A stretch of 53,191 nucleotides of DNA from an uncultured archaeon. GTDB lineage: Archaea; Thermoplasmatota; Penumbrarchaeia; JASLWR01. The translations under genes and the position numbers were made by a program. Location: positions 1 to 53,191 of the forward strand of contig CAYSHM010000022.1 in NCBI GenBank assembly GCA_964430885.1, written 5' to 3'. A model generated the notes under the pieces. It had not been told where the DNA came from, ran no database searches, and saw only the letters and a program-made list of their open reading frames with translations. The number at the start of each line of letters is the position of its first letter. Position 1 is the first letter of the stretch. Below are positions 7,449 to 53,191 of the stretch, piece by piece.

Positions 7449-8006
7449 TCAATATTTGTATCCCTTGACTTCGGCAGAATCCCATTCTACATCCAGACCC
7501 AGAGCGATACGGTTGACAAAATTGAAGTAGCTTACAATGAGGTTCAATGCCAGAATGTCCTTCTGGGAAAATCCGATATTAATTAGTCTGGAGATATCAG
7601 TTTCATCTAGATTATTAGGCTCTCTTGTCAGTTTCAAAGCGTACCTGACCAGTTCTTCTTCCTTGCGGGTCAGATCAACCGAATCAGGATCAATGATATA
7701 TGACCTGATCTTATTTCTATCCCTCCAGTAAGTATTGAGGGCTTCAGCGTGATGGTTTATGCAGTATTCACAACCATTCTCCCTGGATACCACCACCGCC
7801 ACAAATTCCCGCTCAGCTCTTGAAAGCCCGCCCTTTCTGAACATTATCTCCATGTAGAGACCAAGATGCTTCTCCATGGCCATGGGATGAAGACTGTGTA
7901 CTTTCATAATATTAGCAACAGCCCCTCGGTCATTCATTATCCTTTTATAGACGTCTGCAAGTTCTCCTTCAGCGTCATTGGGTTCAATTGTATCTATCCA
8001 AGCCAT
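7449..8006 (-). CDS. AhpD/carboxymuconolactone-decarboxylase-like peroxidase-related protein
   Basis: LSRAERE...VSRENGCEYCINHH (CxxC) and YFNFVNRIALGL. ATG at 8006 has GGAGA upstream and lies 1 nt after the stop of the J-domain gene. Confidence 0.88.
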   Translation of the reverse strand: MAWIDTIEPNDAEGELADVYKRIMNDRGAVANIMKVHSLHPMAMEKHLGLYMEIMFRKGGLSRAEREFVAVVVSRENGCEYCINHHAEALNTYWRDRNKIRSYIIDPDSVDLTRKEEELVRYALKLTREPNNLDETDISRLINIGFSQKDILALNLIVSYFNFVNRIALGLDVEWDSAEVKGYKY

Positions 8007-8007
8007 A

Positions 8008-11000
8008 TCAGAATATCTCCTGGTCATCCTTATCGGTTGGGTTGTAGGGCGCTAAACAGTTATCTATGTCAGAGAAACCTGGCTCTCCCTGAGGTGGTGG
8101 AGGAAGTATTTTTTTTCCTTCCATCACTGGCTCATCCTCTTTTCTGGGGGGTGTAAAAATACCCATTTCCAAGTTGTAATCCTCCCTAGTCCCACTATCC
8201 TTCAGTACGGAGTATGCCTCGTTAATGGACTTCATCTTCTCGTTGAGCATCTCCCTGATCTCCTCATTGGTACCTGAATACTTGTCCGGGTGAAACTCCT
8301 GAATCTTGATCCTGAAGGCCTTCTTGATCTCCTTCTGTGTGGCATTGGAAGGTATGTCCAGGACCTCATAATAGTTAGTTCTTTTTCTCCGGGCCTCTAT
8401 CTCTTCCCGCACCTGTTCCTTGTTAGCCTGTTCAATGTTGAAGACCGCGATAACTCCTCTCACCTCTTCGCATATGTCCATTGTCTGCTGGTAATCACCC
8501 ATTGAGAAAAGGTATTTGGCATGGACCAAGAGGTTCTTTGTATCGCTATTCCTGAATCCCGTTTTCTCTGCATTGCCCATTAGTTCCATGGTAAGGCTGA
8601 GTGTTACCTCGGCAGAGCGTTTCCATGCTTTATTTTCATCTCGTATACTGCTGCCGAAAGAAGGGGCGGGAGGTGGAATGCTGTCGATGCCAATTGTTGG
8701 TACTTTCTCTTCATCGGAATCAGTTTTTTTCCCATGGTCCTCATATTCATCCTCATCATAATCATATCTTCGTCTTTTTCTTCTGGCCAGAACAATAATG
8801 ATAATAAAAAGCAGAGTTCCAAAACAAACAGCCAAAATTATGATCCAGAGGAAATCAGCAGCACCTTTTTTCTCCGGATCATCACTCCTGCCGGTAGTAT
8901 CGTCACCATCAGCTGTAATGTTTCTTTCCAGAACCTTGATCTCAACTTTCATCTGGACCTTGGTTCCGTCAAGTTCCGATAAGCCGATAAAAAATATATC
9001 GTAACGATCAGGGTCAAGGTCTGCAGGTACCATTATTGTTGCGGCAATTTCATATTGTCCTTTATTTGGAACTAGAAATCTTGTTTCACTCAGGGTTGTA
9101 TGGCCAGAGAGCGCTCCCTGCTGAACAAATAAATTTATCATATGTGATGACGTATAGGTATTGGAAAGGGTAATATCCAAATCCTCTGATTCACCCTGTC
9201 TTATTATTAGAGTTGATTCCTCAGCATTCATTGACAGGTCCTCGGATATGGGTATTTCTCCCGGATCCATGTCCTCCGGGCTTTCCATTGTTCTGAAGGT
9301 AAAACTGCCGTTGAGGCATTCACCACTAATGTTATCATAAAACGGGATCACGGTCCAGTAGTAGGTAGTGTTTTTCTCAAGCCCTGTAAGGGTATAGCTG
9401 AAAGTTTTCAGTCCCTTTACTAGAGCAGTTAAGGGATATTTTGTTCCAAAGTAAAGATCATATTCAATTTCAGATATGTTTGTATCAACATCCCTCCCTT
9501 CCCAGTTCAGTGTGAGATTGGGTCCTGGGACCGTAGTATTGTTTTTAGGTGTCTTCAGAATGGTTAAAGGCAGATCGTCCTCTGATTTTGTTTCGATGGT
9601 GATGTTTTTCTGTATGGAAGCCCCATCCAAATCCTTTAATTCAAGTATTATCTTTGATCCCCGTGTACAGTTATCCCACGGAGTTATTATTAGGACATTA
9701 TCCTCAAGGATGATATTTTTCATATAAAAGCAGATGTTAGAGTGGATCAGTATTTCCATAGGGTAGCCAACGTAACTCCATTGGAGTTCATTTGATGGGT
9801 CCTCTACATCCATTCCGTAGGGTGTGAGGTCCAGTACATATTCTTTATCCTCTATTATCACGATGTTATCTATATCATTCAGAATGACTGGAGGATTGTT
9901 GTTGACTCTAAGTGGATCTTCCAGATCTGTCCATTCCGTTGCTGGTCCACCATTGATTTCCAGCATTGTTCTCAGGCTGTAATTTCCGATGCTGGTATCC
10001 TTGGGAGGATTGATGTACGCAGTAATGGTGTTTGATGCAAATTCATACTCGACGCTATCTGTTAAAATAGGGTTCCATGCTCTGGTATCCAAACTCCACT
10101 CAACAACAGGATCCATATCTACGATTTGGTACGAACCCGGATTGACCGAAATATTCAGAAGTACAGACGAGTTTCTGAATACATTTACAGAGGATATGTT
10201 TATATCTAAAATCTTTGGATCTTCAAGATCCCAATGTATTGACCATGAATCAATTTCTGGGAATGAAGTGTTATCGGCCACCAGTTCAGCTTTCAGATAA
10301 AGTGCGGAATGTTTATTGCTTGATAGACCGGTGATATCTATATTACTCCCTGAAAAGTTTAAGAAGGGGTCTATGGGTTCTTGAGTTCCGCCATCCAATA
10401 TTGTCACAGACATTGTGGTGTTCTCAGGAATAGTTCGTGTTATATTTATAGATGACCATTCAGCGCTAGGAGGCCGTTCTATCAATTCGGATATAACAAT
10501 ACCGTCAGTTCTGAATTTTTCCCTTCTGCCCACATATACTGTCAATCCTGAATCTCGGTTATGTGATCTTCTGGTGATCTCTCTGGGGTATAGGTTAGGA
10601 TTATGGAAATAGAGATGCATCGTAGCGGTTCTGTTCCCTGCCAAAGAGGGAATAATGACCTGCAGAGTAGTATCGTCGATAATTTCACCAACAGTATCTT
10701 CCTCCTGCATCTCTAGGGGGTTCCAGTATTTCCATACTAGGTCACTCATGTCCGGTGGTCCGAAAGACCAGTTCCAACGCCAGCTGACTTCAGTTTCGTT
10801 GATGCATCTATTAAGGATACGGACCTCATCCAATAGACCGTACATATTGTCTCCCATTTGTAGATTGCCAGTTTCGGTAAAAGTAATGTTTTCAGAAAGC
10901 AGCATTCCTACCAGGTTACCGTCCACATAGATAATGAGTTTTCTTGAGTCATAGGTGAGGACGATATGGTGCCATCCTGAGCTCATTAGGGCCCATAGAC

Positions 11001-12783
11001 CAGTATTTCCATTAAATTCGCTGTCACTTGCTGAAAATAGAGTTGTTTCCCTGCCTGCATTTAAGTAACCAAGCAGAGAATTTCCCTGTATCGCCAGACC
11101 TAAAACATCTCCCAGTCCGATAATATTGGCACCTATTCTTCCTGACCATATATGCTGGTTCTGTATCCACATATAATACCCTTTTCCACCAACATATCTC
11201 ATAGATGGTGCTTCCATGTTTGTACCGCCGCTTGTGATCTTTGAGGCCGACCATCCGCTACCATCCGTCCCTACTTGACCTGATACGACATAATCCGTAA
11301 CTCCTTCCCTCTGTTCCCAGAGCACGAATATTCTATTCCCTATTACCTGTATGTCAGGGAATCTTTTCTGAATGTTGGTATTTGTACTCTTGATATTTGT
11401 CCAGCTGGTTCCATCCGTATTCATACTGCTGATATGAATCTGATAATCGTTAGGATGTTTCACCGTACCCCATACATAATAGACCTGTTGGCCAGAAACC
11501 TGAAGCCTAGGCCAGAACTTGCTGTCACCTCCTGATGTCTGCAAGGTTTCGATCCAACCGGTCCCATCGGTCAGGGAGCGGGCTGTCACAATTTGCCCTT
11601 TACCGCTTACATCGCGTCTCCAGATATAATGTATAACACCGTCGGCAATATATAATTGAGGGTACTGGTCGGTCTTTGTGTCCTCTGTCATTCCCTGGTT
11701 TGAGATCATATTTCCAGCTGTGCTCACTGTTCCCAAATAGATATGGATATTTCCGCTGTTATCCTCCTGATCCCATACTAGGTAAAGGGTATTGTTCACG
11801 ACCTGAAATTGGACATTTTCTTTGTTATTGGAGCTTGTAGTTATTTTCTTGTCAGTCCACCCGTGACCGTCAATATGGGAACTTCCCCAGTATATCTGGA
11901 TATAGCTGCCGTCGTATCCGGTCCAAATATAATATATACTATCTTCGACCACCTGAAGGTGGGGGTCGAGCTGATTATTATCGTATGAGGTCCGTTTCTG
12001 AGCGGTCCATCCGGTTCCATTGGTGTACATGGTTCCGGTCCATATCTGGAAATCACTGCCGTCGTGTTCCCTCCAGACACAGTAGATTCTATCACCAACC
12101 ACCTGGTAGGATATGCCCTCACGGTTGACGGCATCAGAGGTTTGCTTTTCATAGGTGAATCCTCTTCCGCTGCCGTTAATCCAGCATTCAAGAGTAAATT
12201 CACCGCTGCTTCCGATATCACAATCACCTTCATAATAGGCCTTTGAACCCAGATCGAACTCCATCCCGCTACCTGAGATACCTGCTGTCCAATCATCAGA
12301 TTGAATAACCGCATCCCGTCCGTTTCCGGAGCTGTCCTCTGCTAATGTACCGTTTCCTTCACTGAAATGCCAGCTGCCCCAAAGGCCAGTATTGTTGTAA
12401 TATTGATCTGAAATATTGATATCCACTTCAACATTGTCTCGGGGGATGCCATCGGTCTCTGTTATGGTAACTGGGATCCGATACTTCCAATCTGTATCCC
12501 ACCAAGAACTGTCAACGGTAGCCTTTCCGCTATCGATAATGATATTGTCCAGAAGAGATACCTTGCTCATATCCGAGAAATCATCACTCCAGTTCTGTTG
12601 AGGAACATTTCGAAGTTTTTTGATAGAATTCTGATGGTCAATATCCTCATTCTCATTATTGGGAATATTTTGGTCTACTGAACTGTCCGACATACTTGAA
12701 TACCACACAGGTATATTCTGTATTGAAGCAGATAATAGGAGGATCAGAACGAAAATAACCGGTGTGATATTACCCTTTTTCAT
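8008..12783 (-). CDS. 1591-aa type I membrane protein: DUF2341/LamG/beta-propeller/Ig/FnIII ectodomain, TM helix, cytoplasmic helical unit and J (DnaJ) domain
   Basis: Signal peptide, WWDTDWKYRIPVTI, LamG motifs (WHFSEGNG...DSSGNG; WHHIVLTYD...YVDG...DEVRI) and FnIII TYYWTV. The TM helix ends in RRKRRR and is followed by NYYEVL...HPDK...INEAYSVL...REDYN. Confidence 0.9.
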   Translation of the reverse strand: MKKGNITPVIFVLILLLSASIQNIPVWYSSMSDSSVDQNIPNNENEDIDHQNSIKKLRNVPQQNWSDDFSDMSKVSLLDNIIIDSGKATVDSSWWDTDWKYRIPVTITETDGIPRDNVEVDINISDQYYNNTGLWGSWHFSEGNGTLAEDSSGNGRDAVIQSDDWTAGISGSGMEFDLGSKAYYEGDCDIGSSGEFTLECWINGSGRGFTYEKQTSDAVNREGISYQVVGDRIYCVWREHDGSDFQIWTGTMYTNGTGWTAQKRTSYDNNQLDPHLQVVEDSIYYIWTGYDGSYIQIYWGSSHIDGHGWTDKKITTSSNNKENVQFQVVNNTLYLVWDQEDNSGNIHIYLGTVSTAGNMISNQGMTEDTKTDQYPQLYIADGVIHYIWRRDVSGKGQIVTARSLTDGTGWIETLQTSGGDSKFWPRLQVSGQQVYYVWGTVKHPNDYQIHISSMNTDGTSWTNIKSTNTNIQKRFPDIQVIGNRIFVLWEQREGVTDYVVSGQVGTDGSGWSASKITSGGTNMEAPSMRYVGGKGYYMWIQNQHIWSGRIGANIIGLGDVLGLAIQGNSLLGYLNAGRETTLFSASDSEFNGNTGLWALMSSGWHHIVLTYDSRKLIIYVDGNLVGMLLSENITFTETGNLQMGDNMYGLLDEVRILNRCINETEVSWRWNWSFGPPDMSDLVWKYWNPLEMQEEDTVGEIIDDTTLQVIIPSLAGNRTATMHLYFHNPNLYPREITRRSHNRDSGLTVYVGRREKFRTDGIVISELIERPPSAEWSSINITRTIPENTTMSVTILDGGTQEPIDPFLNFSGSNIDITGLSSNKHSALYLKAELVADNTSFPEIDSWSIHWDLEDPKILDINISSVNVFRNSSVLLNISVNPGSYQIVDMDPVVEWSLDTRAWNPILTDSVEYEFASNTITAYINPPKDTSIGNYSLRTMLEINGGPATEWTDLEDPLRVNNNPPVILNDIDNIVIIEDKEYVLDLTPYGMDVEDPSNELQWSYVGYPMEILIHSNICFYMKNIILEDNVLIITPWDNCTRGSKIILELKDLDGASIQKNITIETKSEDDLPLTILKTPKNNTTVPGPNLTLNWEGRDVDTNISEIEYDLYFGTKYPLTALVKGLKTFSYTLTGLEKNTTYYWTVIPFYDNISGECLNGSFTFRTMESPEDMDPGEIPISEDLSMNAEESTLIIRQGESEDLDITLSNTYTSSHMINLFVQQGALSGHTTLSETRFLVPNKGQYEIAATIMVPADLDPDRYDIFFIGLSELDGTKVQMKVEIKVLERNITADGDDTTGRSDDPEKKGAADFLWIIILAVCFGTLLFIIIIVLARRKRRRYDYDEDEYEDHGKKTDSDEEKVPTIGIDSIPPPAPSFGSSIRDENKAWKRSAEVTLSLTMELMGNAEKTGFRNSDTKNLLVHAKYLFSMGDYQQTMDICEEVRGVIAVFNIEQANKEQVREEIEARRKRTNYYEVLDIPSNATQKEIKKAFRIKIQEFHPDKYSGTNEEIREMLNEKMKSINEAYSVLKDSGTREDYNLEMGIFTPPRKEDEPVMEGKKILPPPPQGEPGFSDIDNCLAPYNPTDKDDQEIF
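11141..12123 (-). repeat. six full plus one partial ~50-aa repeats, probable beta-propeller blades
   Basis: Consensus P.LQV.G..IYYVW....G..QI.......DGTGW....T read from the translation. Confidence 0.8.
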
Positions 12784-30410: not shown

Positions 30411-30664
30411 ACAATCCCTCCGAGAGATGAATTGGTCAATTCGTTTTGCACTATTTAATAATTCCGACAATGTTACCAATTGTCCAATACCTTATGGTAA
30501 GGGGAAATTATCGAAAAATTCAATATCCTTTGAAGTATTTGATGATTAATAATTTTCATGAGATGCAGTTCATTTTTTATTAACGAACGATATTGTTTTA
30601 TACTGGTAATCCATTTTGATTGACAAATCCATACATAATTACAATCTTAATGGATGGTGCTTTC

Positions 30665-31474
30665 ATGCCGATAATAAACATTTTTTCCAGAACCCATGTG
30701 GGAATGCACAGGGAGAACAATGAGGATTCCACAGCTACACTATCTATCAAGACCTCCGATGAGAGGGGCGAGATAAAATATCATGTTCTCATATTGGCTG
30801 ATGGCATGGGGGGTTACGAAAGAGGTGAGGCCGCCAGCCAATTGGCATGCCGAGAACTAGGAATGTTCGCAGTATCAGAGGTGTCGGATATTCTATTATC
30901 CCATAAGGATGATAAAACCAGATTTGAAAATTTCAGGGATAGATGTACCTGTATTGCATCAAAGATAAATACTGAGATCAGAGGGATGGTCTCAAACGAT
31001 GAATCCCGAATTGGTTCCACCTTTGTTATGGCAGTGATCTACAATGATATTTTCAATTTGGCCTATATGGGTGACAGTCGCGCCTACCTTATACAGAATG
31101 GTGGAATTGAGCAGATAACCAGAGACCATTCCTATGTGGAAGCCCTGCTTGAGAACAAGGCCATAACCCCAGAGGAGGCCCTGGATCATCCTATGAAGAA
31201 CGTCATAACCAAAGGATTGGGAATAAATGAAAAGGCCGAACCAGATTTTATCCACGGTAAATTCTCTACTGATTCAGCCCTTATCCTATGCAGTGACGGA
31301 GTAACGGATATGCTCATTGATGGGGAGATCAAGGAAATAGCCCATGAATCCAAACCCTTTGAGATGTGTGATAGAATAGTGGAAGCATCCAATGCCAAAG
31401 GAGGCAAGGATAACATATCCATAGTTATGGCCCGATTGATCTTTTCAAAGGTTAAAAAGAACAAACACCGTTAA
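30665..31474 (+). CDS. PP2C/PPM-family Ser/Thr protein phosphatase
   Basis: VG.HRENNEDS, LADGMGG, GDSRAY, TRDHS, LCSDG and GGKDNI. Confidence 0.95.
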   Translation: MPIINIFSRTHVGMHRENNEDSTATLSIKTSDERGEIKYHVLILADGMGGYERGEAASQLACRELGMFAVSEVSDILLSHKDDKTRFENFRDRCTCIASKINTEIRGMVSNDESRIGSTFVMAVIYNDIFNLAYMGDSRAYLIQNGGIEQITRDHSYVEALLENKAITPEEALDHPMKNVITKGLGINEKAEPDFIHGKFSTDSALILCSDGVTDMLIDGEIKEIAHESKPFEMCDRIVEASNAKGGKDNISIVMARLIFSKVKKNKHR

Positions 31475-31619
31475 ATTTATCAGGTTTTATTAATAATTTC
31501 AAATAAATCATAGCAAGATATAATGAAATGAACATTTAATTATGAAATATTGATTATTATTGGATTTCAGCGTCATCTCATTTAGATTTATAATTTCTAG
31601 TTAAATAAGGATTGGTACA

Positions 31620-32738
31620 ATGCCCAGGTTCAAAGCAAAGCTGGTTTTTGAAAGGGATGAGGAAGTTCCGAAACAGATCGAGATAGATGATTTCATATTG
31701 ATCAAGCGAACCGCTCAGGGTGTGGTTTGCCAGGACGAATGCGACGAATATCCTCTGGGAGTTTTTGATCTTTCAGTAAGCGGAGGGCCGGGCCACGTTA
31801 AGATATTCTGGGAGGGAGATGGTCTCTATTTACAGGATCTCGGGAGCAGGAACGGGACCTTCATCATACGGGGAGGGGTCACAAAACCATTGAAAGGTTG
31901 GATTAGAGACCCTGGAACAGGGAATGGAACTACCAGCCAAAAAGTCAGAGTAAAGAAGACAACTCGGATAAAGGTAGGTCGTTCTCTTTTCTCCTTGGAA
32001 ATTGAACCTATCCAGACAGTTATAGAACACAAGGGCAGCGGGGATATTCGTGTTACAGAAGTTGCAGGTGATTATCAGAATATTGAGATCCGCGACAGTA
32101 TCATACAGCGGTCCAACATAGGGACTGTGAGCCATGGTATTGATGAAAAAGAGTTCAGAAAAGCTGTTAAATGGCTAGATCAGCGTTCTGAGGACCGGGC
32201 AGCCCTCCTGTCGAAAGCACAGGAGGAAATGGCAGGAATGACCGCCGAGCTTTATAACCGCGTGGTTAGTGGTTTGGGGGCTCTTCTTAAGGAGTTCCCG
32301 CTTCCAGCCAGCATGGAGAAGAAAAGGGCAGAGATGCACCTTACTTACAACTGTACTGAATGTAGGACGGAAATTGGTAAAATAATTGATCGGAAATGGA
32401 AGAAATGGCTGATGTTGGGAGTAACAGGGGGTCTTGTGGGTTTGGGTATTGCAACTGTGAGTGTTACCAGTATTACAAAAGCACCAGGGTCGGATATTGG
32501 CCTTAAAGCCATGGGACGCTTGTTCCAGGATTTCACAGGTAAAACATTGGATCAGATTCCCTCTGAAAAATTCTTGCTAACTGATAATGAAAGGAATAAT
32601 CTTGTCATGGAACTAAGAAATGCAGGTATCATTGATAAGTTGAATTACTGCCCGGTTTGTGCAAGATGGGTTTGTAGCGATTGTTTTGAATATCAGGAGA
32701 GGATGTGTATATTGGATAGCCAGAAGAAAGGATGGTGA
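31620..32738 (+). CDS. FHA-domain protein with coiled coil, hydrophobic helix and Cys-rich Zn-binding C-terminus
   Basis: FHA motifs VS....H and LQDLGSRNGTF, then CTEC, a hydrophobic segment and CPVCARWVCSDC...C. Confidence 0.8.
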   Translation: MPRFKAKLVFERDEEVPKQIEIDDFILIKRTAQGVVCQDECDEYPLGVFDLSVSGGPGHVKIFWEGDGLYLQDLGSRNGTFIIRGGVTKPLKGWIRDPGTGNGTTSQKVRVKKTTRIKVGRSLFSLEIEPIQTVIEHKGSGDIRVTEVAGDYQNIEIRDSIIQRSNIGTVSHGIDEKEFRKAVKWLDQRSEDRAALLSKAQEEMAGMTAELYNRVVSGLGALLKEFPLPASMEKKRAEMHLTYNCTECRTEIGKIIDRKWKKWLMLGVTGGLVGLGIATVSVTSITKAPGSDIGLKAMGRLFQDFTGKTLDQIPSEKFLLTDNERNNLVMELRNAGIIDKLNYCPVCARWVCSDCFEYQERMCILDSQKKGW

Positions 32739-43072: not shown

Positions 43073-43776
43073 AACATCCACCTCAAATTATGTATATCGG
43101 GCCGTTAACTAAAGACGATAAATGCTCTTGGTCAGATATTCATCATTAATCTGATCTGAATTTAATCCTTCTATATGGAGTATTATTGATTGAAGTTATA
43201 CTGCACCAATATAATATCAAATATACCCGTATTATTATCCCGGATATTTTTTTTTATCAAGGATATGTAAATCTCAAGGAAAAATCTAACCTAATAAACC
43301 CTTATTAAAACCCCTAAAAATACTGCTTTATGAGAATAACTGTGGAACCTGCTTTCAATATCATCAAAAGTATTATTAATAATTTGATAATTGGGCGATA
43401 AAGTTCTATTGTTGAAAATATCATGAAAACAATTAGGATAACCATTAGATTACATACAAAATATAAAAAGGATGTAGAAAGGAGTATACCTTCCAATATC
43501 CCTGCACATGAACATATTGTTCATTAATAAATTTAAATCATCTATGGATAAAAATAACAGGAACACCATAACCTAAATAATGGGACTGAATTGAAATTCA
43601 TTCTAATTCACCTTAGAATCAATATTACTAGTAACTAGATATAATGAACCCGAACATGTTCTGATTCATTTATGAATCATCCTATGAAAAATCATCTGAC
43701 CCGATAAGAATTGCAATTATCCCTAGAGATCGCTCATTATCAGATCGGGATAATAAAAACAAAACGAGGAATCATA

Positions 43777-46700
43777 ATGGCGGAAGAAAATATAAGGCCA
43801 CAAGAATTGCTTAGGGGATCATCCGATCAAAGTGGCAAAAAAAATTCTCGAGTAATGAACGCACTAAAGGACCTGCAGTCGGTTATGGATGGGAAGATCC
43901 ATACACACATACGGGATATAAGTGAAGAACGGCTTAGATACGCCAACTCTACACTTAATAAACTTGAGCAGGATACAGGACAGGAGTTTCAAGATATCCG
44001 TTTCTATTTGGAAAAGGCCCAGGAAGCCCTCGATTCCAATGATTATACCAATATGGAGAAAATGCTTCAGGCTTTCAGCACAGCTGCTGAAAAACATAAG
44101 AAAGAACTCCTTACTGGCAGGTTGAGAACGGAGATAGATGAAGCTCGCTCTGACCTGGAGGTGCTCGATGAAGCGGGTGTGAATGTTTCATCGGGAATGG
44201 ATTATCTTGAAGATGCCCAGAGAAAGGTGGCTCTTGAAGATTATGTGAAAGCAGAGCAGATAATTCAGGATCTTTTTGATTTTATCAAACGGTGCAAGGA
44301 AAGGGATATCAAAGATATTGTCCAGGCCAGATTCGTTCGTGTTAAAAGAGAATATGAACGACTAATGAAATCCGATATAGATATCAGCGCTGAGAGAGGG
44401 ATATTCAAAGAAGCAGTACTGGCCATCAGAGAAATGGATTATCTGGGAGGAAGCATTCTCCTGAAGGACGTCAGTGAAAGGCTTAAACAGGCAGAGAAGG
44501 GATATATTGTTGAGAAGGGCCGCCAACTTCTAAACGAATATAGATCTACCTTTTCCTACCTAAAGGAAACTGATCATTTTGAAGAGGATTATTTATCGAG
44601 GATAGAAGCGGTCCTTGACCGGTTGAATGGGTCCCTGGCAGCCGGAAATGTTGATAGGATTCTTCCTGAAATGGAGATCGCCGAACGTGTTATGGAAGAG
44701 GTTGTCGCAAAGAAAGATAAGGTTGTGAAGGCCAAAAATCTCAGGAAAGATATCCGAGCATTGATTACAAGTGCGGAACAGCAGGACATTGATGTCAGAG
44801 AAGAAAGATGGACATTGGATGAGACCGACAGAATGTACGAACTTGATCTAGTGGATAAAATGCTTGTTAGACTTGAGGAGGCAAAAGGTTCCCTGGCTAA
44901 AAAGATAAGTATGAAGAAAATGATGGAAGCCCAGCATCATTTGGATCTGTTGAAGAGCGCTTTGGAATCCGAACCGCAGGCCATAAGGGATCACCCTGCC
45001 ATTAGAGCTCAATTAGAAGAAGCTGAGACCGCATTTGCTAATGAGAAATATTTAACTGTCATTGAAACATGCAAGGACATTTCCTCTCTCGTGGACCAAG
45101 TTCAATCGGAACACAAGATCAAGAGCATTGAGGCAAGGTTCCCGAAAGTAAAGGACAGGATCAATAGGAACAAGGAACTGAAGATCAAGACATCCAAGGC
45201 AGAAGCTCTTTATTACCAGGCGAAGCTATATTTTGAGAAAAAAGATCTGGATTCCACCCTGGAATGTTTGAGAATGTCCGAAGAGAACCTGAAAGAGTCC
45301 AGAATTAAGTGGGAAAGAAGGTCTCTTGAAGCTCCGTTTGCGGAAGTGAACGATCTTCTTGTTAAGGCTAGGAGCATGGGGGGAACGGTGAAGGATATCG
45401 TGAAATTACTGAAGAGTGTCAATGAAAATATCGAGAATCAGGAATTCGAAACTGCCCACAAGGAACTTGCCGGGGCTAAGGATGCGTTGAAGGTGATAAT
45501 CGAGAAGAGGTGGGACCAGCTTATCAAAAGGAAGATAAGTGAGATCAGAAAGAAGATGGAGGAAGGCAGTGAATTGGGTATCAGTATCAAGAATGAAAAG
45601 GAAGGAATACCCACCGTAAGAAAGTATCTTCATGATAATAATTATGAAAAGGCCTACGATTCCATAAAGGTTATCGAAACCTCACTGGATGGCAATATTC
45701 ACGGCTTCAAGAAGAAGATAAATGGCCCCAAAGTGGAGAAGGCAAGGGAAGACCTGGAGGCCTTTGAGAAAAAGTGGGGTAAGAAAATAGCTGCTCTTGA
45801 CCAATACGTTACAATGGCAATAGCCTGCCTTGAAGAGGGTGCCCATGATGTGCTTCTAAATCATTTGACCAATTTCTATGATATCAAGGAAAAATACGAA
45901 TCATCCCTGCAGCTGAATGCTTTCAGAAAACGGCTGGATGAGATTTCTGAAGAATTAGATAATTATGAAAACCTTGGCTTGGATGTTGCCAAAGGAAGAT
46001 CCCTGATAGGCGATGCTACCATTCACATGTCCAAGGAGGATGTTGTCTCATCTTCCGCCGTAATGGAGGAGCTTGAGAACTACACTGAAAAACTCAAAAC
46101 CGAGGAAGCCAAGGCCATAGCTAAAAGGAAATTCTCGGATGTGAAGAACCAGTTACTGGAAATGAAAAATGAAGGAATTCCCCTTGACAACGGGAAGAAA
46201 TGGATGAAGAGAGCTATTAGGGCAGTGGATGAGGAGGATTATATCAAGGTTATTTACTATGTGAACAGTGCGGATGATGCTCTAAAAGAGGATAGGAGAA
46301 TGGCTGATAGGCGCTTAACCATTCAAATACTCAAGGAGTTAACTGGATTGATATCTGAATCTGAAGAACTGGGAATCAATATCTCGGTTATCAAGGGTAT
46401 GATGAAGGAATCGGGCATGAATCTTGAGCTTGACCGCAACAAAAAAGCCCATATTATTGCAACTGACGCTCGCAATATACTTCAGGAGAAGATGAAGGAC
46501 CGGTACATGATGAAGGTCCAAAGGAGCATATCAGAGACTGAACGTATCATGGAAAGAGCCCAGGAAATGGGTGTGGATACCGGTGAGGAGAACAAGGCCC
46601 TTATTGTGGCCCGAAAACTCAGTGATAAACAGCAGTTCGGCTCTGCTGTCAGAGAGCTTGATAGTGTAGAAATATCATTAAAACGAAAGATCACCTATCA

Positions 46701-49700
46701 GGAAAAGGAATTGAACAGCAGAAAAATATCGGCCGCTCTGGATAATTATTTAAAATTACAGGAAATGACCGGCCGTCCCCTGAAGGACCTGAATAGTTTC
46801 TTGGATCGAGCCCGAAATGCCCTGGAAAGATATGACTATGACACCATGGACCACCACCTTCTGATGTACAAGGAACAGAGCGACCACTACAGGAAGAGAT
46901 TTTTAAGTGCTAAATACAAGAATCAGATAGATCAGTTCAGGACCAGGGCGGGAGCACTTGAATTCATCGGACTGGAAGCTGAAGGTGTGGCCGAAATGGT
47001 GGATTCGGCGGAAGGTTTCCTTTCCAGTGACAGATATGATGACCTGACCGAGATTTTAGATATCATTCAATCGTCCCTTGATCAAGCCGGGGAAAAAGAT
47101 GCCAAAGAGCTTGCAGTTGCTCTGCTTTCCGAAGCAGGGATGAAATTGAAAAAACTATCGGGTTCTGAGTACTCCATATCCTCAGAGTTGAAAAGTGTAG
47201 AAGAAGCAAAATCGTTATTCGATTCGGGTGAATTTGTTGATTCCTGCTCATCCCTTGTTAATGCTTTAAAGGATATCGATCTCATGATGGAACGTTACAA
47301 CAGGGCAAAAGTTATGAAGAGCATAAAGAAGGCCACTGTTTTCCTTGAGGGTCATTTGGAACACTCCTACTTCACTGATGATAAACAGCTTCAGTTCAAG
47401 GATATATTGGGTGAATTGAGGATATTGTATGAAGAGGATAGCATTCCCGAAGCTCTTGAAAAGACCGTAATCCTGAAGGAAAAGATAGATGAGTATCAAA
47501 ATGGTATCCAGTTACTTGATGACTTCAATAAACTGAATGATGAATGGGTGGAATTGGTAAATTTTGCTCACAAGGTGAACATCAAAATTGCCGCATTGGA
47601 GAAATCTTATCACCGAGCTCAATCCCTGGCTTCCGACGAACGTTTGGATGCCGCCATAGACATAGCGGGAAGAGTTATTAATAAACTACAGGATGAGATC
47701 AAAGACAAGCGGGCCAAGTACGCCCATTCCCTGCTAAAGAAGATCAGAGAAGACCTGGATAAGTACGGAAGATTACTGGATGACACCACGGAAATAAAGA
47801 AGGGTCTGAAAAAGGGCCTTGCACTTCTGGAAGAGAAAAAGCATGAAGATGCCATTCAGATAATGGATCCCCTTCATGATGAGATAGTGGAGAAAAGGAA
47901 TCGTTATCTAAAGGATAAGCTGAATGATATTCTCACTGAGAATGAGAGGATCATGATAGAGAATGAGGATATGGGGATTGACACCTCTGATATGGAAGTG
48001 GCATTTTATAAGGCCAAGTATAATTTCGAGAAGGGTAAATATGTTCTGGCCAAGGATTTCTGTGTGGAAGCTAAGAAAGTAGGTATGGAACAGAGAGAAC
48101 TGTATCACAAGGATAGGGCTGGGAGCCTTCTGGGTGAGGTCAGTTCTAAATACAAGAGAAATATGAAATTAAAGATAAGCGATGCCAAATTGAAGGATCA
48201 ATTGGATAAGGCCGCACAGCAGCTTGATTCCAAGGAATTCGCCAAATCCGTGGAGATTATCCAGAAGATTGAATCCATACTTGTGGAGGACCATAATCAA
48301 TATCTAAGGAACAAGATGGAGAAGGAACTTTCAGGTGTGAAGGACCTGATAACCGATCTTCAAAGCCACCATCATTATCCAGACGAGGAACTGAAACCCA
48401 TAGAGAGCTTATATTTGGAGATGAAGGGCCTTCTCGCAGGGGGTCAATTCATTGAATTGGAAAATAGAATAAAAGATTTCAATGGACGCATACCTTCAAT
48501 AAAGGAGTCCCTGGAATACTACGATCATTTGGATAGACTCGGTGAGGAGATCAAGAACACCGAACACAATTTCAGAGAAACAGGAATCGACCTTGTTAAA
48601 GAGAGAAGATTATTGAAGAAAGCAAAGCTTCTTGTGAAGGACCGAGACTTCAGGGAAGTAAAGGAACTGCTCAATTCTATTGACCAATCTATCAAGGATA
48701 AGGTAGAAGTAGCCAATATGAAAGAAGCCCAGTATATGCTCAGGAGAGCATCCGATATTATAGAAGAGAATCATGATCTGATAAAGGATGTTCTGCCTGT
48801 TGAGAAATATTTTGCCAAGGCCAGCGATCTAATAGACAAGAAGGAATACCGAAAAGCCACAGCTTCTCTCAGGACGTTGATGGACCAGATTATCAAGATA
48901 AAGGATGAATCAAGAAAAAAGAAGCTCAGGTCCTCTATTGAAACCGTCAAGGGAATAATAAAGGCCTTGGAGGATTTCGGTGAAAAGGTCACCTATTTCA
49001 ACGATCTTCTGGATCAGGCAGAGGCTGCTATGGACCGAAAGAATTATGATCTTTCCCAGAGGTTCATAACTAAGGCAAAGGACGCAGCCGTCAAGACCCG
49101 GGATGACCATTACAGATCGGAAACATATTCACTGCTTCCTGAAATACAGAAGATAGTTGGTGAAATATCCAGCTTCGGTTTTGACACTTCAGACATTGAG
49201 GGTGAGATACAATCAATCCATTCACTTCTGAAGGAATCTAGTTATTTCAAGGCACGTGTAAAGGCCCTGAAGACGCTGCAGAGATTGAAGGTTGTTAAGA
49301 AGGATCAGGCCAAGAACAAATTGGATCAGTCAACAAGTGAATTGAGTGTGAAACTGGATACCGCGGTGGAGTTCGGAATTGATATAGAGGATTTCAGGGC
49401 GGATTTTGATGAGAAGAACCGCCTGTTGGATGAGGAGAATTACGTAGAGGCACTGGACCTTATGGAAAGGGTGAAGGTCCAACTGGACAGCAATATAATC
49501 CAGGCAGTGCAAGAAAAGGCAGATAAGGAACTTTTGTCCTTTATGGAGTTATTGGATAATGCAGAATATTTGGGAATTGATATAATTGATCAAAGGGCTC
49601 TAATAACTAAGTTTGAGGAGAAGATTTCTCTAGGCAAATCGGAAGAAGTAATCAGGGCGCTTTATGAACAATCTCTAACAATAAGGAACAGCATACTGAA

Positions 49701-52700
49701 CAATGATATTGTACTTCTAAATTCCGAACTTGACGAATTGGAAGAAGAGACCCACCGGGTTTTATCCGATATACGCGAGCTTGTTCAGAATTTGAAGATA
49801 GATATTGAATACGGCAATATTGAAAAAGCCGAGAAAGAATTATCTGACGTACAGAAATTATTTGAAAAAAGGAACATATCTGTTAAACTTGAGTATTACA
49901 CCAACGCTATTTCCCAGTCCGAGTCCCGCCTTGTCAGGCTGAAGGGTTTATCTGTTGAATGCTCATTATTCGAGGATACCCTGAACCTGTCCAAAGAGCA
50001 TCTAAAACGATATGAATTCTCAGAACTCAAGGCACTATTGGCTGAATTGGGTGAATTGGCAGAGGAATGTGAGGGTGTCAGGGCCAAGGATAGGGCCAAT
50101 GAGATCTACAGCAATATTAGGCAATGGTCAGAACAAATTGGTTTGGATGGATTGAGTGAAGGGCTGGCGGATGACATTCTCAAGGTGGAAGAACTGATAA
50201 CTTCCAAGAGATATATCAGGGCTTGTGAGGTGGGGGAGGATCTTTTAGGTTCATTGAAAGGCCAATATGATGTTTTCCTTAGAGAACAGGTGAATCTCAA
50301 AATGAGTCAGGCAGAGGGATTCCTGGTATCCATTTCTGACAACCAGAATTTCCATACAGATTTTATATCCGAATTCAGAAAAACCATAAAGGAAACAAAG
50401 GATTTCATAAATGAAAATGAGCTCGAAAAGGCAAGTGAACATTTGATAATTGTTGATGAACGATTATCTGAAACCCAGAATCGTTTGGACATATACGCCG
50501 AGAACGAGAAATACCTGGAACTGATAGCGGTTCTCATGGATTCAGCGGAAGAATTGGAAATCGGGCTGGAGGAAGAACTCACTACAATGGAAGGAATAAA
50601 GGTTCAGAAGGAGTCAGGGGAGTTCCATTTATCCTTAGGATTGTTGGAAGGGATAAAGGAAAGTCTGGAGAATAAGATTGACCTCAAGAAGATGAAAAAT
50701 GCCGGAGGACTGTTTCAACAGATGCTGTCTTTGATTGAATCCAGCGGGGATATAGTGGACAATATCGAGGGTATTGAGGAATGGATATCCCAGGCCAAGG
50801 ATCATCTGGAGAATAAACGGTTTTCCGATTTCTCGGATGTCAGCAATAGAATAATCACAACATTGAACGCAGCCAAGGAAAAGGCCAGTTACGGAGAGAT
50901 CAGTTCATTGATTGAATCAACAATGTCTCAGATGAAAGAAGCGGAAGCTTTGGGTATTTCAATTGAAAATGCTGAGGACGTATTGAATAAGGCCATCGAT
51001 TATCTTGAGAAAATGGAATATGACACAGCTAGAAAATATGTTCTGCGTACCAAGGAAATAATCTATCAGAACCGGTCAGAATATTATGAAAAGGAAGCTC
51101 AAAAGTCTATTGAAGACCTCAAAGGTCTTGTGGAAGAGATGGATTCTGCCGGCGCCGATACAACCAAATTCCAGGTAATACTGAAGGATACCATTAAGAA
51201 ATTCAACAATAAACTATTCGAGGAGTCGCTGGTTCATTCCAAAGAAGGTTTACGTCAATCCGGAGATCATCTGAAGAATCATTATTTTGAAAAGGTTACT
51301 GCTCTTCTTAAAGAACTCCAGATCGCCTTCCAAAGTGCTGTGGAGATAGGAATCGATGTGAGTCAATCTCAGGAATTGCAAAAGGACAGCAATTCTTATC
51401 TGGAAGAAGAAAATTTCGCCAAAGCTGAAGAGACCGCCAAAAAAGCTATTGAAATTCTTAGGTCCGGCATGGATGATAAACTGAAAAGGGAAACTCTCAA
51501 GAGATTGGATAGGATCACTGAGTTATTGGACAAAGCCAACGAATTGGGAATACTGCTTGATAAGGAGATGAATACTGCATCATCAGCTAGGGAAGAGCTT
51601 GATGCTGGTAGACCATCCGTGGCATTGGAAATCTCCGAGGGCTTGATAAAGATTCTTGAAGAAAGGATATTGGAGGGTGTTAAATGGGATTTCAGAAGGC
51701 GTATTGACCAAGGTAGAAGAGAAGTAGACAGTATCGACTTGGAAATTTTGGAGAAGGATGAAATTGAGAAATTGTCAGTTCTGAATTCCCTTCTTGATAC
51801 CTTGGAAGGCCATTTTACCAGAGAGGATTTCAAACTGCTTGATGAGAGTTTTGTTGAATTCCAATCCATTTTGGATGATTTCAGCAGGGCTGAAGTTGTG
51901 AGAAGATATTCACGGTCAATTGTGGAACTAAAGGAATCTGCCGAACAGTATCAGAAACTTGGGATCCAAACGGATGAAAGTCTTTCCCTGATAGAGAAAG
52001 CAAGGGAATGTCTTTATGATGACAAACTCAAGGAGACATCGGAATTAATTGAAGAAGTAAATGCGTTTATGGAAAGCTGCTCCGTAAAGGGAGAGGCCGA
52101 GGTCAGTAAGATTATCTCTTCCATGAAGAAGGATATTGAAGATGCCATTTCCCTTAATGTAGATGTACCCGATATATCGGGGATAGAAAAATTAGTTCAG
52201 GTTTTGCTCGAGGAAAGGCGGATCATCGAAGCGCTGTCAACGGCTAGAAATGAGTGGAATAGGGTAATTGAGATACTAAGGGAGAAAGGCCGCGGCATAA
52301 TCCAGAAAGAAGTTAAGAAGCTCAACGTCCTATTGGAAGAGAGCATGAGTTTAGGAATTGATGTCCAGAAGGTGATGGGTGTTCTTTCTAAAATGGAAGG
52401 CATCCGTAGAAAGAAGAACATCAAGGAATCCCTTGAAATGGTGAAGAACGCCAGAGAGGACCTGGAATCCAGAATCGAAGTAGCAAAGGATAGGAAGGAA
52501 GCTGAATTAAGATCACGTTTAAATGAGTATAGACATGAACTAGTCAAATGGGCCGAGGAAGCCGATGCAGATGTGTCAGCTCTTCTCACCATGCTGGGTG
52601 AGATAGAGGGTATACTTGACAGCAAATTCATATTTGAAGCAGAATCGAGAATTGAGAGCTATAATGCTGCCTATGAGGACTTCAAGAAGACCATTGATAA

Positions 52701-53191
52701 AGAAGACCGGAGGAAAATCAAGTACGAATTGGCGGAGGAAAAGAGGAGAGTTGAAGAGGAATTCACTAAGACCAGAGAGCAGATCGAGAGAAAGATATTG
52801 CCTGTGGAAAGGGAGGAAGTGTCAAGTGAAGACGAATTAGATCTGGAATCTGCTTCCAAGGCTGAAATTGACAATGTTGAAAAGCTTCTTGAACAGATCA
52901 AGGAGCAGGGGGAGGATATCCTTCATTTTGAAACGGTTCTGTTCGAGGCTAAATTTTCCTTTGATAACGAGAAGTACCAGGAAGCACTTGATTACTGTGA
53001 TACCATCAAAGAGATGATTTCGGATTATATTGATGTTGAGGAAGAAGAAGAGGTGGAAGAGGAAATCGAAGAAGAGGTGGAAGAGGAAATCGAAGAAGAG
53101 GTTGAAGAGGAAGTCGAAGAAGAGGTTGAAGAGGACGTCGAAGAAGAGATGGAAGAGGAAGTCGAAGAAGAGATGGAAGAGGAAGTCGAAG
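43777..53191 (+). CDS. giant (at least 3138 aa, 3'-truncated) cytoplasmic alpha-helical repeat protein, absent from the ORF track
   Basis: ATG 43777 with SD GAGGA at 43766-43770. The frame reads MAEENIRPQELL... and stays open to the window end. It is E/K/L/I-rich with no signal peptide and no TM segment noticed. Confidence 0.93.
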   Translation, partial: MAEENIRPQELLRGSSDQSGKKNSRVMNALKDLQSVMDGKIHTHIRDISEERLRYANSTLNKLEQDTGQEFQDIRFYLEKAQEALDSNDYTNMEKMLQAFSTAAEKHKKELLTGRLRTEIDEARSDLEVLDEAGVNVSSGMDYLEDAQRKVALEDYVKAEQIIQDLFDFIKRCKERDIKDIVQARFVRVKREYERLMKSDIDISAERGIFKEAVLAIREMDYLGGSILLKDVSERLKQAEKGYIVEKGRQLLNEYRSTFSYLKETDHFEEDYLSRIEAVLDRLNGSLAAGNVDRILPEMEIAERVMEEVVAKKDKVVKAKNLRKDIRALITSAEQQDIDVREERWTLDETDRMYELDLVDKMLVRLEEAKGSLAKKISMKKMMEAQHHLDLLKSALESEPQAIRDHPAIRAQLEEAETAFANEKYLTVIETCKDISSLVDQVQSEHKIKSIEARFPKVKDRINRNKELKIKTSKAEALYYQAKLYFEKKDLDSTLECLRMSEENLKESRIKWERRSLEAPFAEVNDLLVKARSMGGTVKDIVKLLKSVNENIENQEFETAHKELAGAKDALKVIIEKRWDQLIKRKISEIRKKMEEGSELGISIKNEKEGIPTVRKYLHDNNYEKAYDSIKVIETSLDGNIHGFKKKINGPKVEKAREDLEAFEKKWGKKIAALDQYVTMAIACLEEGAHDVLLNHLTNFYDIKEKYESSLQLNAFRKRLDEISEELDNYENLGLDVAKGRSLIGDATIHMSKEDVVSSSAVMEELENYTEKLKTEEAKAIAKRKFSDVKNQLLEMKNEGIPLDNGKKWMKRAIRAVDEEDYIKVIYYVNSADDALKEDRRMADRRLTIQILKELTGLISESEELGINISVIKGMMKESGMNLELDRNKKAHIIATDARNILQEKMKDRYMMKVQRSISETERIMERAQEMGVDTGEENKALIVARKLSDKQQFGSAVRELDSVEISLKRKITYQEKELNSRKISAALDNYLKLQEMTGRPLKDLNSFLDRARNALERYDYDTMDHHLLMYKEQSDHYRKRFLSAKYKNQIDQFRTRAGALEFIGLEAEGVAEMVDSAEGFLSSDRYDDLTEILDIIQSSLDQAGEKDAKELAVALLSEAGMKLKKLSGSEYSISSELKSVEEAKSLFDSGEFVDSCSSLVNALKDIDLMMERYNRAKVMKSIKKATVFLEGHLEHSYFTDDKQLQFKDILGELRILYEEDSIPEALEKTVILKEKIDEYQNGIQLLDDFNKLNDEWVELVNFAHKVNIKIAALEKSYHRAQSLASDERLDAAIDIAGRVINKLQDEIKDKRAKYAHSLLKKIREDLDKYGRLLDDTTEIKKGLKKGLALLEEKKHEDAIQIMDPLHDEIVEKRNRYLKDKLNDILTENERIMIENEDMGIDTSDMEVAFYKAKYNFEKGKYVLAKDFCVEAKKVGMEQRELYHKDRAGSLLGEVSSKYKRNMKLKISDAKLKDQLDKAAQQLDSKEFAKSVEIIQKIESILVEDHNQYLRNKMEKELSGVKDLITDLQSHHHYPDEELKPIESLYLEMKGLLAGGQFIELENRIKDFNGRIPSIKESLEYYDHLDRLGEEIKNTEHNFRETGIDLVKERRLLKKAKLLVKDRDFREVKELLNSIDQSIKDKVEVANMKEAQYMLRRASDIIEENHDLIKDVLPVEKYFAKASDLIDKKEYRKATASLRTLMDQIIKIKDESRKKKLRSSIETVKGIIKALEDFGEKVTYFNDLLDQAEAAMDRKNYDLSQRFITKAKDAAVKTRDDHYRSETYSLLPEIQKIVGEISSFGFDTSDIEGEIQSIHSLLKESSYFKARVKALKTLQRLKVVKKDQAKNKLDQSTSELSVKLDTAVEFGIDIEDFRADFDEKNRLLDEENYVEALDLMERVKVQLDSNIIQAVQEKADKELLSFMELLDNAEYLGIDIIDQRALITKFEEKISLGKSEEVIRALYEQSLTIRNSILNNDIVLLNSELDELEEETHRVLSDIRELVQNLKIDIEYGNIEKAEKELSDVQKLFEKRNISVKLEYYTNAISQSESRLVRLKGLSVECSLFEDTLNLSKEHLKRYEFSELKALLAELGELAEECEGVRAKDRANEIYSNIRQWSEQIGLDGLSEGLADDILKVEELITSKRYIRACEVGEDLLGSLKGQYDVFLREQVNLKMSQAEGFLVSISDNQNFHTDFISEFRKTIKETKDFINENELEKASEHLIIVDERLSETQNRLDIYAENEKYLELIAVLMDSAEELEIGLEEELTTMEGIKVQKESGEFHLSLGLLEGIKESLENKIDLKKMKNAGGLFQQMLSLIESSGDIVDNIEGIEEWISQAKDHLENKRFSDFSDVSNRIITTLNAAKEKASYGEISSLIESTMSQMKEAEALGISIENAEDVLNKAIDYLEKMEYDTARKYVLRTKEIIYQNRSEYYEKEAQKSIEDLKGLVEEMDSAGADTTKFQVILKDTIKKFNNKLFEESLVHSKEGLRQSGDHLKNHYFEKVTALLKELQIAFQSAVEIGIDVSQSQELQKDSNSYLEEENFAKAEETAKKAIEILRSGMDDKLKRETLKRLDRITELLDKANELGILLDKEMNTASSAREELDAGRPSVALEISEGLIKILEERILEGVKWDFRRRIDQGRREVDSIDLEILEKDEIEKLSVLNSLLDTLEGHFTREDFKLLDESFVEFQSILDDFSRAEVVRRYSRSIVELKESAEQYQKLGIQTDESLSLIEKARECLYDDKLKETSELIEEVNAFMESCSVKGEAEVSKIISSMKKDIEDAISLNVDVPDISGIEKLVQVLLEERRIIEALSTARNEWNRVIEILREKGRGIIQKEVKKLNVLLEESMSLGIDVQKVMGVLSKMEGIRRKKNIKESLEMVKNAREDLESRIEVAKDRKEAELRSRLNEYRHELVKWAEEADADVSALLTMLGEIEGILDSKFIFEAESRIESYNAAYEDFKKTIDKEDRRKIKYELAEEKRRVEEEFTKTREQIERKILPVEREEVSSEDELDLESASKAEIDNVEKLLEQIKEQGEDILHFETVLFEAKFSFDNEKYQEALDYCDTIKEMISDYIDVEEEEEVEEEIEEEVEEEIEEEVEEEVEEEVEEDVEEEMEEEVEEEMEEEVE
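43920..53022 (+). repeat. about 45 tandem ~66-aa helical units
   Basis: Turn codons of the [LM]G[IV]D-type motif fall at 43978, 44176, 44374, 44572, 44785, 44983, 45181, 45379, 45577 and so on to 52354, 52564 and 52909, mostly exactly 198 nt apart. Confidence 0.88.
53044..53191 (+). repeat. 24-nt tandem repeat (six copies plus partial) encoding (EEE[VIM])n
   Basis: Unit GAAGAAGAG(GTG/GTT/ATG)GAAGAGGA(A/C)(A/G)TC running to the window end. Confidence 0.95.

Follow-up and report, generated by a model that had tools for sequence, protein, structure and literature searches.

Why would an archaeal surface protein end in a J domain, and does the segment just ahead of that domain tie the protein to a giant rod-like protein encoded on the same contig? 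These questions are posed by a 53,191-nucleotide (nt) stretch of DNA from an uncultured archaeon (GTDB lineage Archaea; Thermoplasmatota; Penumbrarchaeia; JASLWR01; GenBank assembly GCA_964430885.1, contig CAYSHM010000022.1). The whole stretch, called the window below, is contig C22 of the genome (G000; 3.13 Mb, 44 contigs). It encodes P0001, a J-domain surface protein of 1591 amino acids (aa), and P0002, a giant protein built of a 66-residue repeat. We found that a segment of the P0001 tail is very probably homologous to the repeat units of P0002, as a diverged single copy, and lies within a conserved cassette shared with other surface proteins. A special bond to P0002, which the original prediction had proposed, was not supported. 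J-domain proteins set where and on what Hsp70 works; to our knowledge, archaeal J-proteins other than DnaJ are almost unstudied.

Architecture of P0001

The translation of P0001 begins with a hydrophobic N-terminus (signal or anchor) and continues into a large ectodomain with numerous N-x-S/T sequons, a single transmembrane (TM) helix and a tail of ~260 residues that is predicted to be cytoplasmic. The gene and its parts are listed here, with coordinates of the window.

8008..12783, minus strand: P0001 gene, 1591-aa J-domain surface protein (open reading frame (ORF) list and translation)
10783..11073, minus strand: Laminin_G_3 (concanavalin-like) domain, aa 571-667 (Pfam PF13385, 43.4 bits, cut-off 27.6)
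8785..8853, minus strand: TM helix FLWIIILAVCFGTLLFIIIIVLA, aa 1311-1333, with RRKRRR directly after it (read from the translation)
8629..8784, minus strand: acidic and Pro-rich linker, aa 1334-1385, poorly conserved (16% identity to the ortholog in genome G170)
8434..8628, minus strand: probable lone rod-repeat unit, aa 1386-1450 (family hidden Markov model, hhalign, structure model, ortholog conservation)
8383..8433, minus strand: prolonged helix C ('stalk'), aa 1451-1467, linking the unit to the J domain (single helix in the structure model)
8173..8376, minus strand: J domain with HPD, aa 1470-1537 (Pfam PF00226, 60.1 bits, cut-off 27.8; the genome search agrees)
8011..8172, minus strand: C-terminal Pro-rich and acidic tail, aa 1538-1591 (translation; 41% identity to the G170 ortholog)

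The tail would lie in the cytoplasm because RRKRRR follows the TM helix, as expected under the positive-inside rule, and because DnaK is cytoplasmic. The HPD tripeptide of the J domain stands in the context ...IQEFHPDKYSG..., and neither DnaJ_C nor a Cys-rich zinc finger was found in P0001 with Pfam at E <= 0.1. Judged from its sequence, P0001 belongs to the class C (type III) J-domain proteins and is anchored in the membrane. A model of the tail made with AlphaFold 2 (AF2) reproduced the J-domain fold, with helices at model residues 99-112, 123-144 and 146-156. A Foldseek search of the PDB with this model gave only J domains among the top 50 rows, with a TM-score on the target of at most 0.87 and every E > 0.001.

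The repeat of the giant rod protein P0002

The original prediction compared the P0001 tail with P0002, for which the following features were used.

43711..53190, plus strand: giant rod gene P0002, at least 3160 aa, running off the contig end (ORF list, hidden Markov model)
52855..53037, plus strand: last in-window unit, aa 3049-3109 (hidden Markov model row, 50.8 bits)
47932..48090, plus strand: internal unit, aa 1408-1460, nearest of 121 units to the tail unit (BLOSUM62 score 53, 14 identities)

A hidden Markov model (HMM) iterated on P0002 itself converged on a unit of 66-69 residues, with 35 copies at an independent E-value below 0.01 and 43 rows in total, up to eight of them weak. The HMM consensus reads ..LLeeaeelGIDiskiekllkkAkellekkeYdkAleileeak... 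The stretch from aa 70 to 3110 would hold 46 slots of 66 aa; the 45 units counted originally come near this number, and only 35 can be clearly called. Three consecutive units were modelled with AF2 at a mean predicted local distance difference test (pLDDT) of 91.7 from an alignment of six paralogous rows. Each unit has a helix A of ~19 residues and a helix B of ~15, followed by a helix of ~43 residues that comprises helix C and helix A of the next unit. According to this model, small three-helix bundles follow one another along the P0002 rod.

The rod unit has no model in Pfam or NCBIfam. ANAPC3 of Pfam reached 13.6 bits on P0002, its cut-off being 27.2. Foldseek of the rod model against the PDB returned nothing at E <= 0.001; all rows had E > 0.1 and comprised designed helical proteins and weak spectrin rows (E >= 2). 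VIA-align placed EzrA first (Z 10.7, root-mean-square deviation (rmsd) 13.0 over 128 residues) and generic three-helix bundles at Z 8-10 with rmsd 1.6-3; for helical bundles, a Z below ~13 marks a common arrangement only.

The likeness to spectrin-type rods and EzrA (PDB 4uy3, 4uxv) lies in antiparallel three-helix bundles whose last helix runs into the next unit; the rod unit has 66 residues, whereas a spectrin repeat has ~106. An identification as the spectrin repeat (PF00435) was rejected, given the unit length of 66 residues and the lack of a Pfam match. The MIT domain was also considered. It had no Pfam match at E <= 0.1 and was absent from the 50 VIA rows listed, which does not exclude it.

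P0002 is listed with a TTG start that is probably too early. The likely start is the ATG at 43777, which opens MAEENIRPQELL (MAEENIRPQ...), and the 22 residues before it (43711-43776) resemble read-through from upstream. In the genomes G077, G142 and G170, relatives from the same family, open frames of 7295, 7294, 7028 and 5393 aa, far larger than P0002, also match the rod unit.

The tail segment as a copy of the repeat

The P0001 peptide KTGFRNSDTKNLLVHAKYLFSMGDYQQTMDICEEVRGVI lies at aa 1407-1445 (nt 8449-8565), and the P0002 peptide EQGEDILHFETVLFEAKFSFDNEKYQEALDYCDTIKEMI at aa 3066-3104, within aa 3051-3104 (nt 52861-53022). Both peptides stand where the original prediction had put them, and they align without gaps at 10/39 identities, namely the turn Gly and the nine residues listed earlier. 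The unit in P0001 consists of helix A (1386-1407), the turn TGFRN, helix B (1413-1428), the turn GD and helix C from 1431 onwards.

We built a family HMM from 91 units of 19 ORFs, leaving P0001 out. It matched tail aa 1398-1442 with 13.5 bits for the domain and 15.2 for the protein, over HMM positions 4-48 of 53, so that helix A and the G-F turn are included and the match extends beyond the hairpin. The isolated 71-aa tail scored 21.1 bits, a value reached by none of 2000 shuffles (maximum 8.5). Among 15,245 reversed ORFs the highest score was 8.1 bits, short of 15.2, and the best of 153 windows of 71 aa from tetratricopeptide repeat (TPR) proteins of this genome scored 13.7 bits, below the tail. 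Profile comparison by hhalign of four aligned tail units with the P0002 units gave a probability of 97.4% (E 1.3e-11) across 53 columns without gaps, and 93-96% when the tail sequence was used singly. Control values were 6-9% for reversed templates and 2.8-3.5% for a TPR profile of this genome.

In the AF2 tail model (mean pLDDT 89; four alignment rows), helices were predicted at model residues 2-23, 29-44 and 47-83, with pLDDT of 92-97 over the unit blocks. They correspond to aa 1386-1407, 1413-1428 and 1431-1467, and the J domain follows. The helix pattern is alike in the two AF2 models, the tail having a helix A of ~22 residues, a helix B of ~16 and a long helix C. The proposal of a lone repeat unit before the J domain was thus supported by the family HMM, the decoys and hhalign alike, and we regard the tail segment as very probably a diverged, single-copy homolog of the rod units. 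P0001 holds one copy and no tandem array, and its relatives hold one or two. It would therefore be a member of a domain family and not a rod protein.

Several results weigh against this assignment. An HMM built from P0002 alone matched tail aa 1395-1443 (domain score 9.9 bits, whole-protein score 11.4), at rank 32 genome-wide and E 0.23, which is by itself not significant. With the family HMM, P0001 ranked 29th among 15,245 six-frame ORFs at E 0.015, a borderline value. The AF2 models derive from shallow alignments of four and six rows, and plain helices usually give high pLDDT; the predicted template modelling score of the tail model is 0.50, which leaves undefined how the J domain is placed with respect to the unit. 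Moreover, the last TPR of P0076, a eukaryote-type TPR-J protein, reached 18.3 bits with the family HMM, the best PDB sequence matches of the unit profile were HOP TPR2A domains (E 0.0035-0.017), and the helix B-C hairpin looks TPR-like in sequence.

The last three points could mean that the tail is a generic TPR-like helical hairpin, as in DNAJC3- and DNAJC7-type J-proteins, with no homology to the rod. The TPR proteins of this genome also total 16-29 bits over their full sequences with the family HMM, and they do so by summing weak partial matches. Single TPRs, however, covered only HMM positions ~20-50 and scored at most 7.4 bits, while the tail match spans helix A and the G-[FI] turn. No Pfam TPR family matched P0001 at E <= 0.1, and the hhalign values for units and TPRs lie far apart. 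The other cassette members described below carry canonical units with a G-[IV]-[DN]-T turn at 20-30 bits. We consider a mere TPR-like hairpin highly improbable.

A conserved cassette behind varied ectodomains

When 1.84 billion representatives were scanned by HMMER with the 257-aa tail as query, most of the matches were to J domains. Among the 150 matches listed, three shared the unit, a helix of ~25 aa and the J domain in one register. P0049 (1482 aa, metagenome) has a Kelch-type ectodomain, a TM helix, two units and the J domain; P0026 (1282 aa, metagenome) has a CARDB/PKD ectodomain, a TM helix, one unit and the J domain; P0075 is a 245-aa fragment with unit and J domain. Their units scored 20.2 (P0049), 12.4 (P0026) and 15.3 bits (P0075) with the family HMM. 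The ectodomains in front of the cassette differ, being Laminin_G_3 in P0001, Kelch in P0049 and CARDB/PKD in P0026, and a segment of stalk-like length is present in 4/4 cassettes.

Within a sample of 401 genomes of the phylum, the full-length cassette was found in three: this genome, G170 (a 1773-aa ORF) and G083 (twice, 1951 and 1095 aa). Their units scored 14.0, 15.2 and 29.7 bits. The 1773-aa protein is the P0001 ortholog, with 44% identity over 1604 columns and a much longer C-terminal tail after the J domain. By region, the identity is 46% in the ectodomain, 23% in the TM helix, 16% in the linker, 48% in the unit, 8% in the stalk (aa 1446-1469) and 66% in the J domain. The unit is therefore a conserved island between flanks of 16% and 8%, and behaves as a domain under selection. 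As compared across these proteins, the cytoplasmic cassette is a conserved series of TM helix, disordered linker, unit (two in some relatives), helical stalk and J domain.

Other searches added little to this set. A search for homologues of near length with the tail region returned the query only, and a longer search with the cassette alignment gave only J-domain matches beyond P0026 and P0049. A search for related loci in genome contigs, which used J-domain motifs as patterns, returned 71 bacterial J-domain loci, none of which covered the unit, so that no census was possible. Two matches were set aside: P0003, the top representative match (223.7 bits), has six tandem J domains and is no relative of the tail, and P0153 (122 bits) is a tandem-J protein without the unit.

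We favour, as the probable reading, that P0001 is a membrane-anchored class C J-protein whose conserved cassette contains one true copy of a lineage-wide rod unit, serving as a spacer or adaptor. The large, glycosylated ectodomain would face outward, as predicted from the topology. The J domain would recruit one of the two DnaK/Hsp70 proteins of the genome to the cytoplasmic side of the membrane, where it would trigger the ATPase of that protein. The unit and the prolonged helix C could form a rigid spacer or adaptor that sets the J domain off the membrane, and the unit may give the J domain a binding partner. Two further considerations count on the other side. The spacer/adaptor role, the tail topology and the activity of the J domain are all inferred. 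In addition, four ectodomain-TM-J proteins of the same class lack the unit (0/4 above 8 bits), so the unit is dispensable for the basic architecture.

These four (L116-L119, in G194, G047, G119 and G162) are type I surface proteins of 1289-1593 aa from other families, with a TM helix, a short acidic tail and the J domain. In this genome, a 1236-aa ORF at C32:3433-7140 encodes a PKD-like ectodomain and a TM helix at ~aa 993, then a RING-like finger rich in Cys and, at the C-terminus, a J domain; it has no rod unit. Together, the unit-free relatives and the C32 protein make ectodomain-TM-J a class-wide theme, in which the unit would be an insertion, observed in two metagenome proteins as well as in families f1 and f4.

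The same set of proteins bears on another possible role for the unit, namely self-association. The unit could dimerise or cluster the tails, so that clustering of the ectodomains would alter the density of J domains and signal across the membrane to Hsp70. This would suit an architecture that is that of a single-pass receptor, a cassette shuffled onto varied ectodomains of binding type, and a unit that is conserved while the linkers are not. The class relatives, however, manage without the unit, and we hold such signalling to be quite improbable.

The P0001 ectodomain also contains, at aa ~215-610 (window ~10950-12150), some eight repeats of ~50 residues that precede Laminin_G_3. They follow the pattern [IV]-[YH]-[YC]-[VI]-W ... 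DG ... W, resemble propeller blades and have no Pfam name.

Spread of the unit and the question of docking to P0002

The family HMM found 122 unit copies in 25 ORFs of this genome (threshold >= 12 bits and >= 35 columns). Besides P0002, at least nine other proteins of 850-3300 aa have multiple units; the ORF at C5:98352-105326 (2325 aa) was matched by both the P0002-only and the family HMM. One or two units were found in a YidC/EMC3-like insertase (C19), a four-TM protein (C9), a surface protein (C37) and in RING, WD40 and CARDB proteins. The original prediction that the unit is a mobile module agrees with this range of carriers, which includes soluble J-proteins as well, and the insertase, the four-TM protein and the C37 protein are further membrane proteins found with it. 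Rods were found in 73 of the 401 genomes of the phylum sample and in 35/36 other genomes of the class. Going by these matches, the repeat is used as a building block throughout the lineage; it is not private to P0002, and it is a free-standing domain as well as a rod element.

Three carriers were viewed individually. The EMC3/TMCO1-type (YidC-like) insertase at C19:12140-13402 (L002) has a C-terminal tail with two units, which the P0002-only HMM scored at 23.1 and 9.2 bits. The protein at C37:303-6791 (L006) is a 2163-aa surface protein with beta-helix/NosD, MAM-like and PKD domains and one TM helix at ~aa 1836; its predicted cytoplasmic tail has two rod units and a long acidic end, a layout like that of P0001 without the J domain. 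P0015 (337 aa, metagenome) is a small J-protein whose N-terminus resembles a signal peptide; between this and the TM helix stands a very clear rod unit (32.9 bits). Lying before the TM helix, this unit would be extracellular, unless the N-terminus is an uncleaved anchor.

The original prediction went further and had the tail unit pair, homotypically or by helix swapping, with the terminal unit of P0002, thereby docking the giant rod to the surface protein. The two units are homologous, with 10/39 shared residues including a D.C motif, and the P0001 and P0002 genes lie on the same 53-kb contig. When 121 units were ranked by similarity to the tail unit, however, the last in-window unit of P0002 came only 5th, behind units of three other proteins and an internal P0002 unit. 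Nor is the last in-window unit likely to be terminal. The P0002 frame is still open where the contig ends, within an imperfect, acidic (E/V/I/M)-rich repeat (window 53040-53190), and a relative in another genome, 25% identical, is 3840 aa long; the unit compared is therefore last only within the window. The two genes lie on opposite strands, separated by 31 kb and by ~25 unrelated genes, and in relatives there is no synteny (0 rod ORFs on the three cassette contigs).

In a complex prediction, the tail unit (model residues 1-86) and P0002 aa 3040-3120 scored 0.00 in both runs (mark 0.32), a result that was obtained without controls and counts neither way. The co-occurrence of rods and cassette across genomes, which had been suggested as a check, was uninformative because rods are present in 35/36 other genomes of the class while the cassette is in 3/401 of the sample. 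With no special similarity of the tail to this giant or its end, and no rod gene adjoining the cassette genes on the relative contigs, docking of P0002 through its terminal unit is extremely unlikely. Contig C4 opens in frame with an acidic run, DDDDDEETGLEED, which may be a continuation of P0002 or may be unrelated.

J-proteins, Hsp70 and a possible general link to the rods

The genome has ten J-domain ORFs and two DnaK loci (PF00012, 705 and 703 bits). Given an HPD-bearing J domain and two DnaK genes, the recruitment of Hsp70 by P0001, as originally proposed, is plausible. The canonical DnaK (C7), whose C-terminus was viewed for an EEVD-like motif to which a TPR-like unit could bind, ends in the acidic ...DVDYDDLD. 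In the second DnaK (C2:44882-47005), the C-terminus is extended by a segment that contains a CPRC...C..C motif resembling a zinc ribbon and that reads in part as X.

Rod units are present in three of the ten J-proteins, namely P0001 and two paralogous soluble proteins. The latter (C1:218033-219340 and C11:4989-6077) consist of a J domain, two rod units and tandem TerB-like repeats (W-[AD]-DG-[IV]-[IV]-T...). Bacterial DjlA also joins TerB and J, in an order unlike that of these two proteins. Full-length relatives of this soluble type were found only in G077, G142 and G170 (family f1) and G162 (f9), among 37 class genomes. Units are enriched in J-proteins over other genes (3/10 versus 26/2990, ~3000 genes being assumed; Fisher p ~1e-4, or 0.003 with paralogs counted once), which is only a hint since related genes are not independent. 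On the strength of these architectures, the rod repeat is an element recruited beside J domains independently at least twice, in families where the repeat has expanded.

Auxilin and GAK are J-proteins with a lattice-binding domain, so that Hsp70 acts on the lattice. They are not known to be related to P0001 in sequence or fold, and serve here as the model for a more general connection: lone units in J-proteins and membrane tails would bind the rod network, and the J-proteins would bring DnaK to it. DnaK might then assemble, remodel or detach rods, partly at the anchor points of surface proteins. Such a link could explain why 3/10 J-proteins carry units, why the fusions occur in two unrelated architectures (TM-unit-J and J-units-TerB-like), and why they were found only in families f1, f4 and f9, where first-look unit counts were 78-189 as against 20-35 in f3. 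The C37 surface protein, too, combines a TM helix with a unit-bearing tail. Contact between units, however, would have to be assumed from homology, no rod gene stands beside the cassette genes on 3/3 relative contigs examined, and G158 has 199 first-look candidates without the cassette at E <= 1e-25. The enrichment may also just mirror frequent domain shuffling in an expanded family. We consider this general link possible but unlikely.

A broader picture, which we rate as decidedly unlikely, would have a scaffold at the cell cortex made of dozens of mini-spectrin rod proteins and serviced by Hsp70, into which the unit-bearing J-proteins plug, the tails of surface glycoproteins being both anchors and DnaK recruiters. 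If true, it would be an archaeal counterpart of the coupling of receptor, cytoskeleton and chaperone, in the manner of auxilin.

Comparison with known J-proteins

The favoured reading of P0001 as a membrane-anchored J-protein has its closest parallels in class C proteins such as DjlA, in which an HPD J domain is held at the cytoplasmic face by a TM helix. As in that group, P0001 is without a G/F region, a zinc finger and a DnaJ C-terminal domain. DjlA is small and has an N-terminal anchor and a TerB-type domain, whereas P0001 is a 1591-aa type I surface protein with a C-terminal J domain. An identification of P0001 as DjlA was rejected: NCBIfam PRK09430 gave 40.6 bits against a cut-off of 162, and covered only the J domain and the stretch preceding it.

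TPR-J proteins (DNAJC3/P58IPK, DNAJC7; the 'DnaJ-TPR' class of PMC10410713) share with P0001 a TPR-like helical module directly before the J domain. There, the module picks the clients or partners of Hsp70. P0001 differs in having one three-helix bundle and no TPR solenoid.

A large census of J-protein architectures (PMC10410713) gives 2,712 of class C, with TerB-DnaJ and DnaJ-TPR among the commonest. Among thousands of such architectures, a new partner domain is unsurprising in itself. Archaea with several Hsp70 genes include Thermoplasmatota, according to a survey of archaeal KJE systems (2026, PMC12874294). In the literature searched, we came upon no account of the 66-residue repeat or of archaeal surface proteins whose J domain is cytoplasmic. 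Even without the unit, type I surface proteins ending in TM-J appear to be an undescribed architecture. By predicted topology, type I surface proteins of 1300-1600 aa with a C-terminal cytoplasmic J domain occur in a class of Thermoplasmatota. Taken with the recruitment of the repeat beside J domains and its free-standing occurrence, they offer a testable handle on two questions: the role of the giant rods in these archaea, and why a surface protein should end in a J domain.

Neighbouring genes

A CMD/AhpD-like gene (192 aa; window 7449-8027, minus strand) overlaps the end of the P0001 gene by 20 nt, which suggests co-transcription of the two. Further along the window (30620-32738), an FHA-domain gene comes after a PP2C phosphatase gene; the two form a pair of the Ser/Thr-phosphorylation signalling type.

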